NCBI RefSeq assembly: GCF_001677475.2 | Contig: NZ_CP015229.1 | Source: Escherichia coli | GTDB taxonomy: Bacteria; Pseudomonadota; Gammaproteobacteria; Enterobacterales; Enterobacteriaceae | Strand: one strand, 5' to 3' | DNA: 64,000 nucleotides | Shown: positions 4,704-42,168 of the stretch, in pieces | Layout of the letters: each line of letters opens with the position of its first letter | Numbering within the stretch: position 1 is the first letter of the stretch | Notes under the pieces: model-generated | What the model was told of the DNA's origin: nothing | Databases searched by the model: none | What the model saw: only the letters and a program-made list of their open reading frames with translations | Made by a program: the position numbers and the translations under genes

Positions 4704-5081
4704 GTTGGTTATCCAGAATCAAAAGGTGGGTTAATTATCGCATCCGGGCAGTAGTATTTTGCTTTTTTCAGAAAATAATCAAAAAAAGTTAGCGTGGTGA
4801 ATCGATACTTTACCGATTGAATTTGCATCAATTTCATTCAGGAATGCGATTCCACTCACAATATTCCCGCCATATAAACCAAGATTTAACCTTTTGAGAA
4901 CATTTTCCACACCTAAAATGCTATTTCTGCGATAATAGCAACCGTTTCGTGACAGGAATCACGGAGTTTTTTGTCAAATATGAATTTCTCCAGATACGTA
5001 AATCTATGAGCCTTGTCGCGGTTAACACCCCCAAAAAGACTTTACTATTCAGGCAATACATATTGGCTAAGGAGCAGTGAA

Positions 5082-34379: not shown

Positions 34380-34412
34380 TTATGAGCTTTAACGAAAGTG
34401 AATGAGGGCAGC

Positions 34413-35918
34413 ATGGAAACCAAAGATCTGATTGTGATAGGTGGCGGCATCAATGGTGCTGGTATCGCGGCAGACGCCGCTGGACGCGGTTTATCCGTGC
34501 TGATGCTGGAGGCGCAGGATCTCGCTTGTGCGACCTCTTCCGCCAGTTCAAAACTCATTCACGGTGGCCTGCGCTACCTTGAGCACTATGAATTCCGCCT
34601 GGTCAGCGAGGCGCTGGCTGAACGTGAAGTGCTACTGAAAATGGCCCCGCATATCGCCTTCCCGATGCGTTTTCGCCTGCCGCATCGTCCGCATCTGCGC
34701 CCGGCGTGGATGATTCGGATTGGTCTGTTTATGTACGATCATCTGGGTAAACGCACCAGCCTGCCGGGATCAACCGGTTTGCGTTTTGGCGCAAATTCAG
34801 TGTTAAAACCGGAAATTAAGCGCGGATTCGAATATTCCGACTGTTGGGTAGACGACGCCCGTCTGGTACTCGCCAACGCCCAGATGGTGGTGCGTAAAGG
34901 CGGTGAAGTGCTTACCCGGACTCGTGCCACTTCTGCTCGCCGCGAAAACGGCCTGTGGATTGTGGAAGCGGAAGATATCGATACCGGCAAAAAATTCACC
35001 TGGCAGGCGCGCGGCCTGGTTAATGCTACCGGCCCGTGGGTGAAACAGTTCTTCGACGACGGGATGCATCTGCCTTCGCCTTATGGCATTCGCCTGATCA
35101 AAGGCAGCCATATTGTGGTGCCGCGTGTGCATACCCAGAAGCAAGCCTACATTCTGCAAAACGAAGATAAACGTATTGTGTTCGTGATCCCGTGGATGGA
35201 CGAGTTTTCCATCATCGGCACCACCGATGTGGAATACAAAGGCGATCCAAAAGCAGTGAAGATTGAAGAGAGTGAAATCAATTACCTGCTGAAAGTGTAT
35301 AACGCGCACTTTAAAAAACAGTTAAGCCGGGACGATATCGTCTGGACCTACTCCGGCGTGCGCCCGCTGTGTGATGATGAGTCCGATTCGCCGCAGGCTA
35401 TCACTCGTGATTACACCCTTGATATCCATGATGAAAACGGCAAAGCCCCGCTGCTGTCGGTATTCGGCGGTAAGCTGACCACCTACCGCAAACTGGCGGA
35501 ACACGCGCTGGAAAAACTGACGCCATATTATCAGGGCATTGGTCCGGCGTGGACGAAAGAGAGCGTGCTGCCGGGCGGTGCCATTGAAGGCGACCGTGAC
35601 GATTACGCCGCGCGTCTGCGCCGCCGTTACCCATTCCTGACCGAATCGCTGGCACGTCATTACGCACGCACTTACGGCAGCAACAGCGAGCTGTTGCTCG
35701 GCAATGCAGGGGCGATAAGCGACCTCGGGGAGGATTTCGGTCATGAGTTCTACGAAGCGGAGCTGAAATACCTGGTGGATCACGAATGGGTCCGCCGCGC
35801 CGACGATGCCCTGTGGCGTCGCACAAAACAAGGAATGTGGCTGAATGCGGAACAACAATCTCATGTGAGTCAGTGGCTGGTGGAGTATACGCAGCAGAAG
35901 TTGTCGCTGGCGTCGTAA
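34413..35918 (+). CDS. glpD: Aerobic glycerol-3-phosphate dehydrogenase
   Basis: Track ORF 34398..35918; start at ATG 34413 (METKDLIVIGGGINGAGIA, FAD fold); 501 aa. Confidence 0.96.
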   Translation: METKDLIVIGGGINGAGIAADAAGRGLSVLMLEAQDLACATSSASSKLIHGGLRYLEHYEFRLVSEALAEREVLLKMAPHIAFPMRFRLPHRPHLRPAWMIRIGLFMYDHLGKRTSLPGSTGLRFGANSVLKPEIKRGFEYSDCWVDDARLVLANAQMVVRKGGEVLTRTRATSARRENGLWIVEAEDIDTGKKFTWQARGLVNATGPWVKQFFDDGMHLPSPYGIRLIKGSHIVVPRVHTQKQAYILQNEDKRIVFVIPWMDEFSIIGTTDVEYKGDPKAVKIEESEINYLLKVYNAHFKKQLSRDDIVWTYSGVRPLCDDESDSPQAITRDYTLDIHDENGKAPLLSVFGGKLTTYRKLAEHALEKLTPYYQGIGPAWTKESVLPGGAIEGDRDDYAARLRRRYPFLTESLARHYARTYGSNSELLLGNAGAISDLGEDFGHEFYEAELKYLVDHEWVRRADDALWRRTKQGMWLNAEQQSHVSQWLVEYTQQKLSLAS

Positions 35919-35925
35919 GGATGAT

Positions 35926-35948
35926 GCCCGGTTGAAGTGCAACCGGGC
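35926..35948 (+). terminator. Hairpin terminator after glpD (shared with convergent island operon)
   Basis: GCCCGGTTGaagtgCAACCGGGC followed by TATTTGG. Confidence 0.6.
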
Positions 35949-35969: not shown

Positions 35970-36575
35970 TTATTGTAAATAATTGAATAACGGCCCCTGA
36001 GCTAAAATCGCCAAACTTAAGCACGTTACCCACTCACCCCATTTCTGCCTCTGGCTTCTATTTTTGCTACACCAATGGCAATAATATCCCAATGCAAAAC
36101 CAACCTGTGCACTAATCGGGCCGACAAAATCAGTCCACGACTGCGGCCAAAAAGGGGAAAAATTCAGGGGAAGCCAGACAAACGTCAGAAAGAAATTTCG
36201 GATATTTTCCAGCAACGCTGATTTCTCTGGAGAAATATAAAGAATGAAATTCGAGAGAATTAACCAGAAATAGACCGGAGAAAAGACCAGCCAGCAATGC
36301 AGTCTGTTTTTTAATTCAGGAGGCGTTCTGCGGGAGAATTGCCAACCGATGCCCCACATTACACTGAAAAAAAATGCATATTCAACCATTAACTCAAGTT
36401 GTAATTCCTGAAGAGAAATACGCACAACCAGGAGCGGAAAGGAGAATGTTATTTCTGCCAGAAAAGTTAACGTGAATATAAGTACGGCTAAGACAATAAC
36501 CGTCGGCCATACCAATACTGGCACGATAACAAAACCGAGAATTACAGGGGGAATATAAAGCCGGAATTTAATCAT
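35970..36575 (-). CDS. Hypothetical small polytopic membrane protein (last gene of uncharacterised four-gene operon)
   Basis: 201-aa ORF with several hydrophobic helices; AGGAAA 7 nt upstream of ATG; 2-nt gap from the upstream gene's stop. Confidence 0.6.
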   Translation of the reverse strand: MIKFRLYIPPVILGFVIVPVLVWPTVIVLAVLIFTLTFLAEITFSFPLLVVRISLQELQLELMVEYAFFFSVMWGIGWQFSRRTPPELKNRLHCWLVFSPVYFWLILSNFILYISPEKSALLENIRNFFLTFVWLPLNFSPFWPQSWTDFVGPISAQVGFALGYYCHWCSKNRSQRQKWGEWVTCLSLAILAQGPLFNYLQ

Positions 36576-36577
36576 TT

Positions 36578-37345
36578 TTATTTTCCTGGTGATTCGGATG
36601 ATGCGTCATACATCGCGCATAAACACTCATCAATCATCCAGTCGTCTACCCAGACCTGATGCTGTGTACCCTGTTCTGGCTGCTTTGGTGGGTTCTCAAT
36701 CGCCTGCCGCGCGCGTTCTTTCAGGATGGATTGATTGTTGAAGGCCCAGGCATTGATTTGGGCGGTAATGGCATTATCGATATCGTCATGGTTATCTCTG
36801 ATATAACCTTCACGATACTGGTTCAATAAACAGGCAAGTGAAGCTGCCGACCAAAAGCCGGGAATTGAATTAACGGCATCAAGCAACGGCGCAATGGCGA
36901 TATCGGCACGGAAAAACATTTCCAGCATATACTGTAATTCGACAGCTTCATCGCCGGATACCCAATCAGCCATATACTGGCAGGCAAATCGCTGCAATAT
37001 TGCCCGTTCATCCGCACGCCAGTTTTCTTTGTTGGCAAGGTTGATACGGCGCAGAGAAAAAACTTCGTGAATATTGTCAAAATACCCCTGTGCAACAAAT
37101 TCCAGTAAACGCGGAAGAAAATAGCGGACCTCATCGCTATTTTGCGGATCGGGTCCTGGGCTACTATTCCAGGCATTGATTAAGGAATACGAGATCGCTC
37201 GTAACGATGTACTCCGTAATACCTTTTGTTCCTGCTGACTCAGGCAATATTCACAACAAACCACAAATTTCTGCGGCACCGGATAGCGACGAAAAATATG
37301 ATAAATCTGCTCAATTAATGCCTGCATGGCGGGGCTGGGTTGCAT
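36578..37345 (-). CDS. Hypothetical soluble protein (third gene of uncharacterised operon); start ambiguous
   Basis: Track ORF 36578..37372 (264 aa); preferred start is the ATG at 37343-37345 (MQPSPAMQALIEQ, 255 aa) preceded by GAGGGGG and 2 nt after the upstream stop. Confidence 0.55.
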   Translation of the reverse strand: MQPSPAMQALIEQIYHIFRRYPVPQKFVVCCEYCLSQQEQKVLRSTSLRAISYSLINAWNSSPGPDPQNSDEVRYFLPRLLEFVAQGYFDNIHEVFSLRRINLANKENWRADERAILQRFACQYMADWVSGDEAVELQYMLEMFFRADIAIAPLLDAVNSIPGFWSAASLACLLNQYREGYIRDNHDDIDNAITAQINAWAFNNQSILKERARQAIENPPKQPEQGTQHQVWVDDWMIDECLCAMYDASSESPGK

Positions 37346-37347
37346 AA

Positions 37348-38055
37348 TTACCCCCTCGCCCGCTGGTCGCATGTAAATGGTTGATAAACCAAACGAGCAT
37401 TCGCCGCATTCAGGCGAATAATGGCACTACGAGAGAGGGAAAAGCTGGGGCGAATGCAATAATTACAGTCCCGACAGCTATCCTCTGTGCAATTTTCCAC
37501 TGAGTAATGACGCGCGTAGAGTTTCAGTTCAGCCTGCTTATCGCGAAATCCGCGTAAACTGTTATCGCTATGAAATTTCCAGGCTTCTTTAAACACCTGA
37601 AAGATATAGACATCCTCAATCCAGGAGTCACATTTTTTAAGCGGGCGCTTTGCTATGATCACCCGCTCCGGGTTTAGCATCGCCGTAAAATGAACGGTGA
37701 AGTCATTTGTCGTATTCAGGTCACATTGAACATCTGGTACATCACTGATATAGGGGTCAAATCCAAAATCAGCACCACAGGCACAAAGACGACCGATCGT
37801 GGTGGTATCGAGGGAAAATCCCGGCCATACATTGCTGGACGTTAAGCCAATATTTAATGTGACATTATATCGAAGCAATCCCTCAAGACCGTCAGCACCG
37901 ACGAACTTTTCCCCTTCATCCAGGACCTGATTAATGAGTTGTTGAACAATACCTTCATCCCAGTATGCCGATTTGCAGTTGGCAATCGTAATATCCACGC
38001 CTGTGAAAGGATCAGTACCAGCGAGGCTTGCAAATAATGTATTAACTAATTCCAT
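37348..38055 (-). CDS. Hypothetical Cys-rich protein (second gene of uncharacterised operon)
   Basis: 235-aa ORF with 10 Cys including cluster C-x4-C-x2-C-x2-C (CTEDSCRDCNYC); 14 nt downstream of the first gene. Confidence 0.6.
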   Translation of the reverse strand: MELVNTLFASLAGTDPFTGVDITIANCKSAYWDEGIVQQLINQVLDEGEKFVGADGLEGLLRYNVTLNIGLTSSNVWPGFSLDTTTIGRLCACGADFGFDPYISDVPDVQCDLNTTNDFTVHFTAMLNPERVIIAKRPLKKCDSWIEDVYIFQVFKEAWKFHSDNSLRGFRDKQAELKLYARHYSVENCTEDSCRDCNYCIRPSFSLSRSAIIRLNAANARLVYQPFTCDQRARG

Positions 38056-38069
38056 TTTTATTACCCGCC

Positions 38070-39587
38070 TTAATGCAACGTTTTATACATCGGCACATAA
38101 CCCACGTCTTCTACCAAACTCTGCCCCTGCGGCGTTAAAAACCATTCAACCAGTTTTTGTGTTTCTGACGTCATATTTTCCCGCGTTACCATAAAGGCAT
38201 CGACGATATAGGGATATTTGCCATTGCGAATGTTTTCCGCAGTCGGTGCAATACCGTTAATCGCTAACAATTTGATATTCTTATCGGCATTCATTTGTGT
38301 TGCGTAATAGCGGAAGGTATAACCTATTGCGTTGTTTGTATTACGGTATTCGGCAACGACTTTAATCATTCCCTCCATCACACTTGCCACTTCGGTTTCC
38401 TGCGGCGAGATCATACGGACATTTTTCATGACCTGTAATTGCATCACCGTCTGACTGCCAGAGTCTTCCGGGCGTTGCCAGGTCTGGATCTCCTGATCGT
38501 TACCGCCAACAGTACGCCAGTTGGTAATTGCGCCACTAAAAATGTCTCGCACTTGTTGTTCAGTCAGGGAATTGACTGGATTATCAGCATTGACGATAAA
38601 AACAAATGCTTCACGGGCAAAGGGGGTGTACAGCAAAGTGACACCAGATTCCTTTGCACGTTTTTTCTGCCCACCGGAAGGTTGCGCCACGAAAATAATA
38701 TCAGCATCACCCTTAACGATTTTGTTATATGCTTCTGGCGTACGAGAGTTATCCAGATAATCCCAAACGTGAAAATCCTCTGGTATTATGCTTAACGCAT
38801 AAAAGGCAGAAGCATAAATTGGGTACGCCGCCGTGGCACCATCGATTCGCGGCCAGTTTTGCGTAAACTGAATTTGCGGTTTGCCACGCAGCGGCGTCAG
38901 TCGATTATTGAGTTTATCGGGTCGCCAGGCCCAGATATCAATATTTTCGCGTACACCAACACCAGGGTTTTGCTGCTTATATAAATGGGCCTGATACCCA
39001 GCGACAATACCAAGTAAGAGAAGTAGAAACAGGAGTAAGTTACGGCAACGTAGCCCGGACGTGCCGGTTAAAGGATGCCTTGTCGGCCAGCCGTATCCCA
39101 GCGAAAAACTGATATGCGTTCCAACGGGAATAATGACTATCCACCAGTACTCACCACCGACTAATGAGACTAACAAAACACCCAGCCAGGGAAGCATAAG
39201 ATCTGCCAACCAACCTGAAACCATCTGGCGAAATTGATAATCTGCCAGATGTAGCGTGATTATCCAGCCAACCAGGATTAATAAAGCAGGAACTAAAAAA
39301 AGACATTGTCGCCAGGCGGCTATTTCTCTGTTTTCTGGTGCGCTATCGCCCGCCCACACTCGCCCAGAGAAAAATAGCAGTAATGCGCCCAGCGTCAGCA
39401 TAAAGACGTTAAGTAGAAGATAAATTGTTGGCGTAAAGAGTAAATTGCAAAACTCAAGAATAGCGGCAAGCCCGGCCCCCAGCATGGCAATAACCGCCGC
39501 CAAAAACTGCGCCAGAATGGGGATGCCGAAAAAAGTCATTACCAGCGAGGTCAAAATCCATTTTCTGTTTTGCATTATTCTTTCCAT
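38070..39587 (-). CDS. Membrane-anchored PstS-like (PBP-like) substrate-binding-domain protein (first gene of uncharacterised operon); probably the intact form of K-12 pseudogene yzgL
   Basis: 505-aa ORF; N-terminal ~190 aa with multiple hydrophobic helices; C-terminal part with phosphate-binding-protein-like motifs (LTEQQVRDIFSGAITNWRTVGG); alternative start at Met5 (39575). Confidence 0.7.
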   Translation of the reverse strand: MERIMQNRKWILTSLVMTFFGIPILAQFLAAVIAMLGAGLAAILEFCNLLFTPTIYLLLNVFMLTLGALLLFFSGRVWAGDSAPENREIAAWRQCLFLVPALLILVGWIITLHLADYQFRQMVSGWLADLMLPWLGVLLVSLVGGEYWWIVIIPVGTHISFSLGYGWPTRHPLTGTSGLRCRNLLLFLLLLLGIVAGYQAHLYKQQNPGVGVRENIDIWAWRPDKLNNRLTPLRGKPQIQFTQNWPRIDGATAAYPIYASAFYALSIIPEDFHVWDYLDNSRTPEAYNKIVKGDADIIFVAQPSGGQKKRAKESGVTLLYTPFAREAFVFIVNADNPVNSLTEQQVRDIFSGAITNWRTVGGNDQEIQTWQRPEDSGSQTVMQLQVMKNVRMISPQETEVASVMEGMIKVVAEYRNTNNAIGYTFRYYATQMNADKNIKLLAINGIAPTAENIRNGKYPYIVDAFMVTRENMTSETQKLVEWFLTPQGQSLVEDVGYVPMYKTLH

Positions 39588-39604
39588 TCTTTCTGAATGG
39601 CGAA

Positions 39605-39610
39605 ATTATA
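39605..39610 (-). promoter_or_regulatory. Candidate -10 hexamer for the uncharacterised four-gene operon
   Basis: Minus strand TATAAT about 18-23 nt upstream of the first ATG and downstream of the glgP terminator; no good -35. Confidence 0.35.
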
Positions 39611-39659
39611 CTCCCCGAGTCCCCTTGCCCCTTCTGGACACTTTTCCGAAATGATGGCG

Positions 39660-39684
39660 AAAAAAACGGGACCCTTTGGCCCCG
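39660..39684 (-). terminator. Rho-independent terminator after glgP
   Basis: Minus strand CGGGGCCaaagGGTCCCG (one G-U pair) followed by seven T. Confidence 0.75.
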
Positions 39685-39702
39685 CTCTATTTATTAGTGA
39701 AA

Positions 39703-42168
<2,466 letters not shown>

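Follow-up and report, generated by a model that had tools for sequence, protein, structure and literature searches.

A probable separate promoter, likely dependent on an activator, for the operon downstream of glgP in Escherichia coli

The described promoters closest to the one considered here are those that depend on an activator and have no recognisable -35 element, such as the PhoB-dependent pstS promoter, the MalT-dependent malP promoter and the class II CRP/FNR promoters, all of which combine a good -10 hexamer with a conserved upstream element at a fixed distance. Extended -10 promoters, of the galP1 type, also function without a -35. A further class, represented by rrnB P1, carries UP elements, which normally accompany a usable -35.

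The chromosomal locus has also been described before. It is the site of the K-12 pseudogene yzgL (b3427), its O157 version is known as O-island 133 (PMC3378721, PMC10877973), and the glp-glg interval is presented as a structural hotspot (“hotspot A”) with seven arrangements (PMC13185298). All three descriptions concern the chromosomal locus studied here, with its intergenic sequence, the O-island 133 of EDL933 differing in having a second PstS-like gene instead of the four-gene set of our window, i.e., the whole stretch of 64,000 nt of E. coli DNA that was analysed. In the portions of these descriptions that were accessible we found no treatment of the promoter.

In its glgP region the window shares 98% identity with genomes of E. 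coli. On the minus strand of the window the order is glgX, glgC, glgA, glgP, a gap of 127 nt, and four tightly packed genes, followed by the convergent glpD (34398–35918, plus strand, from the list of open reading frames). The gene glgP (39703–42150, minus strand) codes for glycogen phosphorylase (815 aa), as indicated by the open reading frame list, the RefSeq annotation of matching E. coli regions and the Pfam Phosphorylase profile on its orthologues, and ends with a TAA stop codon at 39705–39703. The first gene after the gap (gene 1, 38070–39575, minus strand) codes for an integral membrane protein with about five to seven hydrophobic segments within residues 1–200 (hydropathy) and a C-terminal PstS-like substrate-binding domain, with profile matches to PF12849 (6e-30) and TIGR02136 (5e-35, under TIGR02136's own cut-off) and a match to the PstS proteins in the PDB (1e-18). 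Gene 2 (37348–38055, minus strand) codes for a soluble protein of 235 aa, assigned to the “YbbD family” by RefSeq, and its orthologues (53–57% identity) come after gene 1 in Klebsiella and Salmonella as well. Gene 3 (36578–37345, minus strand, although the open reading frame reaches 37372) codes for a hypothetical protein of about 255 aa for which profile searches gave no family match, and gene 4 (35970–36575, minus strand), the last before glpD, for a hypothetical membrane protein of 201 aa. None of the four proteins matched the PADLOC defence-system models. The hairpin located between gene 4 and glpD (35926–35948) has a T-rich tail solely on the plus (glpD) strand, so that the four-gene operon is left without an obvious intrinsic terminator of its own.

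The gap begins with a hairpin, CGGGGCC-AAAG-GGTCCCG (39667–39684, minus strand), located 18 nt past the glgP stop codon, with an A-rich stretch 5' of the stem and a run of seven T (39660–39666) abutting it on the other side. An earlier note on this DNA had described a stem-loop and seven T behind glgP, and both are present where it placed them. The stem consists of seven pairs, six G-C and one G-U, and could be extended by an AGAG:UUUU pairing; folded as RNA, the hairpin reaches -17.1 kcal/mol (z = -4.8), a stability that 200 shuffles never equalled. The T run is invariant across all the aligned Escherichia sequences and the stem is retained among the species of the genus, with changes in the loop and a one-sided change from G-U to G-C. 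Equivalent hairpins with a T run were found behind glgP in K. oxytoca, Klebsiella sp., Phytobacter, Salmonella and the lineage that we have designated L022. A GC-rich hairpin, a U-tract, a location just after the stop codon and conservation at orthologous sites are the marks of an intrinsic terminator, and the comparison with canonical E. coli Rho-independent terminators (GC-rich 7-bp stem, tetraloop, uninterrupted U7 directly 3', stop codon 18 nt before) revealed no structural difference. A consensus promoter/terminator scan of the window did not include this terminator among its calls, probably because A:U and G:U pairs can lengthen the stem at the expense of the T run, so that the remaining tail is too poor in T, and we attribute the miss to the scan and not to the sequence. 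Such a terminator would end most of the glgBXCAP/glgCAP transcription.

Between the terminator and gene 1 there is, as had been claimed, a perfect TATAAT (39605–39610, minus strand). This hexamer occurs nine times in the 64 kb, counting both strands, versus 19.6 in shuffles, and the chance of finding one in the correct strand within 115 nt is about 0.01–0.02. Over some 60 intergenic gaps a single TATAAT is not compelling alone, and it is its conservation, shown below, that gives it meaning. The earlier note was also right in that there is no good -35. By hand count, no TTGACA-like hexamer was found at spacings of 15–19 nt: the would-be -35 reads AAGGGG with a 17-nt spacer and AGGGGC with a 16-nt spacer, each a 1/6 match, and the best match is 3/6, at 15 nt. 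An extended -10 is absent too, since the TATAAT is preceded by GAG (G and A at positions -15/-14 in Escherichia) and TG was found at these positions in no lineage of the alignment; unlike the galP1-type promoters, this one lacks the TGn motif. In the recognition by sigma-70 the positions -12, -11 and -7 matter most, and positions 4 and 5 of the hexamer least. What the gap offers to sigma-70 is thus a -10 with T at -12, A at -11 and T at -7, with neither a -35 nor an extended -10. The usual spacing from the -10 would place the start of transcription at 39598 (minus strand), an A located seven nt past the hexamer and preceded by a C, and a conserved A after a pyrimidine is what start sites typically show. 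The column of this predicted start is A in six out of seven lineages, and the one before it is a pyrimidine in all seven. The consensus scan called no promoter at this TATAAT. Its sole promoter in the gap, TCGCCA-18-AATAAT (39603–39574), was rejected, its -10 overlapping the start codon and not being conserved in other genera.

Evidence for a promoter comes from the comparison with other genera. The gap sequences within Escherichia are too similar to be informative, which leaves about seven independent lineages as the basis of the footprint. Ahead of the orthologous membrane/PstS-like gene these lineages have a common module formed by the block ATTTCRGAWAA (block A), 30 or 31 nt, the hexamer TATAMT, 29–33 nt and the ATG. 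In the window block A reads ATTTCGGAAAA (39642–39652, minus strand, delimited by conservation among lineages), and what separates it from the hexamer is a G-rich, variable spacer (39611–39641, minus strand) that spans the would-be -35. The module is carried by Escherichia, Klebsiella, Salmonella, Phytobacter and L022, including six of the compared non-Escherichia loci. The hexamer is TATACT in K. oxytoca, Klebsiella sp., L022 and one Salmonella locus (L010), TATCAT in another Salmonella locus (L013), and TATAAT in Phytobacter, i.e., the substitutions are confined to positions 4 and 5 and spare -12, -11 and -7. The pattern T-A-T-n-n-T is invariant over the 12 aligned upstream regions, even though the gene 1 proteins of the compared genera share only about 50–55% identity. 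Over seven lineages the mean pairwise identity was 0.86 in the hexamer and 0.80 in block A. The spacer had 0.40, the leader 0.61 and the first 15 coding nucleotides 0.64. When the 81 six-column windows of the non-coding alignment were ranked by conservation the hexamer came first and block A second, and the distance between the two is kept at 40–41 nt in six genera or lineages. Purifying selection clearly acts on the hexamer, together with block A at its fixed distance.

The module is also independent of what precedes it. At L010 it is intact behind a gene for an iron-type alcohol dehydrogenase (Fe-ADH) and not behind glgP, at L013 an extra gene of 174 codons intervenes after glgP, and in L022 repeats totalling about 560 nt stand between block A and the terminator of glgP. 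At all three loci the module is intact and starts at block A. That the module travels with gene 1 even where glgP is not adjacent argues for a promoter of its own, and the comparative data back this reading more strongly than a single sequence could. The region that intervenes in L022 (L022:2890–3415, GCA_902363335.1) is made of six tandem GC-rich repeats of ~95 nt each. In Intestinirhabdus both elements are kept, with block A 12 nt closer to the hexamer (29 nt), a shift not easily reconciled with an activator that depends strictly on position. The more distant orthologues (37–42% identity) of Budviciaceae, Leclercia and Rahnella have AT-rich, unrelated upstream regions in which the module was not found, and contribute nothing to the footprint.

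The same alignments bear on the start of gene 1. The earlier note had taken the ATG at 39587 as the first codon, but the ATG that is conserved across genera aligns with 39575, and the latter is probably the true start. Reading from the K. oxytoca counterpart of ATG 39587, one meets an in-frame TAA three codons later, and L022 has a TAA directly ahead of the conserved ATG. Annotations of this start disagree, the longest open reading frame beginning at ATG 39587, PGAP/RefSeq using an ATA at 39578 and conservation pointing to ATG 39575. Similarly, the representative of the Salmonella protein cluster (P0038, 517 aa; L010:5001) begins at an ATG that lies within block A. With the start of transcription predicted at 39598, the putative 5' leader (39576–39597, minus strand, from the alignments) would be short, the ATG being 23 nt downstream of the predicted start, and contains a weak Shine-Dalgarno-like GGA (39585–39583) located 8–10 nt ahead of the ATG and a conserved CAG-purine stretch. 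In K-12 the corresponding predicted start falls on position 3507329 of NZ_LM995446.1, likewise 23 nt ahead of the ATG, here that of yzgL.

A different origin can be imagined for the transcripts of these genes. The operon might have no working promoter, being expressed mainly by glg transcripts that read through the glgP terminator, with the hexamer serving some other purpose. SMRT-Cappable-seq extends the RegulonDB unit b3427 to b3428|b3427 (PMC6131387, Supplementary Data 3), which means that at least one primary K-12 transcript covers both glgP and yzgL and that the terminator is not absolute. In that work 75% of the E. coli termination sites showed a read-through of at least 5% (PMC6131387). 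In addition, among the listed entries of the Cappable-seq, SMRT-Cappable-seq and Kim 2012 tables, as far as these were accessible, there is no mapped 5' end for gene 1 or yzgL, which is weak evidence, and the listed SMRT-Cappable-seq entries (PMC6131387) contain neither a TSS nor a TTS at the locus in either coordinate system. The Term-seq tables searched (Adams 2021, PMC7815308) have no 3' end at the glgP terminator, and the genes of the locus are not listed in the supplements of an 11-condition RNA-seq study of EDL933. Against this, an “extended” call in the SMRT-Cappable-seq work requires one read only, the glgP terminator lacks none of the marks of efficient termination, and the module is kept where glgP is not upstream or is about 600 nt away.

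The expression data also weigh against passive read-through. The glg genes are normally induced in stationary phase. In a stationary-phase array of EDL933 the O-island 133 gene Z4789, which from the gene numbering would be the orthologue of gene 1, gave a log2 value of 3.1 in the wild type and one of 4.4 when rpoS was mutated (PMC2907692), i.e., the gene is near the array floor and rises rather than falls in the absence of RpoS. This behaviour would fit a weak sigma-70 promoter under sigma competition, and not passive read-through from glg. Considering both sides, we regard expression mainly by read-through as unlikely. What the earlier note had proposed, limited read-through and independent expression, has thus to be qualified: the terminator is canonical and strong-looking, and the -10 and block A are conserved and travel without glgP, but at least one K-12 transcript does run from glgP into yzgL.

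It could also be argued that something other than initiation has kept the TATAAT and block A conserved, or that they are so by an accident of the few lineages available, the operon being essentially silent DNA. As mentioned above, a lone TATAAT in one of ~60 gaps is not unexpected by chance, the single array value available for the island gene is very low, and no consequence is known of the loss of the genes from K-12. However, the hexamer is the top-ranked window right beside a spacer with 40% identity, it varies in the way that -10 elements typically do, a purine is conserved at +1, and the reading frame of gene 1 is intact across genera. Furthermore, the deletion of O-island 133 lowered type III secretion in a deletion screen of EHEC (PMC3378721), an effect for which we found no follow-up in the accessible parts of the O-island 133 literature (PMC3378721, PMC10877973). 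On balance we consider that silent DNA is a quite improbable explanation.

Another way to account for the conserved stretch, which lies directly ahead of the start codon and has a G-rich spacer, is that transcription starts upstream of block A and that block, spacer and hexamer together act in cis as an RNA leader, either an attenuator or riboswitch-like. RNAalifold found no conserved pairs in the 12-sequence alignment, and Rfam gave no match above chance (the sole one was to a CRISPR repeat, with an E value of 0.8), both of which make a structured leader unlikely. The fold of the whole gap as a single sequence was no better than that of shuffles (z -1.46), and L022 and L010 show nothing conserved upstream of block A that could act as a promoter. 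A leader of this type appears very improbable indeed.

We come back therefore to a promoter immediately ahead of gene 1, in which block A is a candidate activator site or UP-like element. It spans about -54 to -44 relative to the predicted start, contains a 9-bp dyad (TTTC-n-GAAA) and is the sole A/T-rich patch within an otherwise G-rich region between -40 and -60. The absence of a -35 together with a conserved block A fits the description “weak or activator-dependent” given in the earlier note, as does the low expression of Z4789, although none of the regulator consensus sequences compared fits block A. Since the first gene is PstS-like, control by PhoB as in pstS is an obvious guess, but we found no consistent Pho box: the best matches to the two CTGTCAT repeats were 11–12 out of 18, at a site that differs by genome, and shuffles equalled them in 12–68% of the trials. 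Consensus scans for PhoB, CRP, FNR, MalT, CpxR, sigma-E and sigma-54 over eight orthologous upstream regions gave none that was consistently above shuffles. An antisense sigma-E-like match in K. oxytoca (10/11) was discarded, as it was not conserved. The geometry is also different from that of class II CRP/FNR and similar promoters, block A being centred near -49, and not at -41.5 nor over the -35.

The resemblance to UP elements is loose. The TTT and AAAA runs of block A fall roughly at the distal and proximal subsites of rrnB P1-type promoters (hand comparison), with matches to ~5/11 distal and 1/4 proximal positions of the consensus, which is reportedly that of Estrem et al. 1998. The conserved C-R-G at the centre of block A suggests base-specific recognition instead. 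We searched the window for TTTCRGAWAA and found four sites versus 0.67 expected. As members of a regulon the others were rejected. Two are within genes, the third lies a long way ahead of pckA and has no -10 to go with it, and we judged them due to chance. This second intergenic copy, TTTCAGAAAA (4766–4775, plus strand), stands ~317 nt ahead of ATG 5083, where pckA starts, and ~63 nt upstream of a divergent gene of 574 aa, has no -10 at 41 nt and is probably a chance occurrence.

Putting these elements together, we think it fairly probable that the gap holds a terminator followed by an activator-dependent or UP-assisted promoter of the sigma-70 type for the four genes, with a small read-through added. 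A start at the A in 39598 would drive the four tightly packed genes from 39575 to 35970. The promoter would be weak when unaided and might depend on block A, either through the binding of an activator or through an UP-like contact with the alpha subunit of RNA polymerase. Some read-through from glgP may add to the expression of the operon. In K-12 yzgL was detectable by array and fell 2-fold on Cpx induction by NlpE overproduction (PMC2731931).

The operon had been considered part of an island, and here the data separate the genes from their promoter. The composition does deviate, GC being 0.42–0.48 over 35970–39600 versus 0.50–0.57 in glpD and the glg genes. On the other hand, a strain-restricted segment with boundaries that include the promoter is not what was found. 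We searched 5,426 complete genomes of E. coli with a query spanning the island, the gap and the ends of the flanking genes. Some part of it was matched in 5365 of them, K-12 included, and in these 5365 genomes the match takes in the gap together with gene 1's 5' end. Only the genes behind gene 1 vary. The four-gene version, at a coverage of at least 80%, was found in 2428 of the 5426 genomes (about 45%). The pseudogene yzgL of K-12 is what is left there of gene 1, its first ~74 codons, preceded by the gap, while in O157:H7 (EDL933) gene 1 is accompanied by the second PstS-like gene and a single hypothetical one. The four-gene, O157:H7 and K-12 versions have almost the same gap sequence. A contig of 477 nt in a Terrisporobacter mayombei assembly (NZ_JAHZMP010000174.1) also consists of K-12-like E. 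coli glgP-yzgL DNA and is almost certainly a contamination.

Beyond Escherichia, homologues of gene 1 (50–55% identity) are found between glgP and glpD in K. oxytoca, Klebsiella sp., Phytobacter, L022 and some Salmonella, a synteny across genera indicating that gene 1 and its upstream region are ancestral. In the compared loci L011, L013, L019, L015 and L021 the glgP-glpD interval contains from one to three tandem membrane/PstS-like paralogues together with variable small genes. The small genes include some with YbbD_head (PF26610) and, faintly, DUF4279 matches. In Intestinirhabdus alba the first PstS-like copy comes after a type VI secretion gene, tssM/IcmF. The interval looks like a conserved locus with variable cargo, in which, judging from these comparisons, the promoter and gene 1 belong to the ancestral part and the cargo downstream is what varies.

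In most respects the glgP boundary is ordinary, a terminator followed by the promoter of the next operon, and only block A, conserved upstream of the hexamer, is mildly novel. The analysis has corrected two points, i.e., the start codon of gene 1 and the assignment of the promoter to a recently acquired island, of which it is not a part. The locus between glgP and glpD, whether as yzgL, as O-island 133 or in its four-gene version, very probably has an autonomous and conserved promoter. Such a promoter should be silent without its co-factor, which would explain the near-zero array signal, and standard laboratory conditions would then not be expected to reveal the function of the operon. We suggest, tentatively, that block A might be the operator of a new transcription factor that activates this conserved, cargo-variable locus. 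If this is the case, the promoter would be the entry point to a new signal-response circuit, and the 11 bp of block A would provide a concrete handle for finding the inducing signal.
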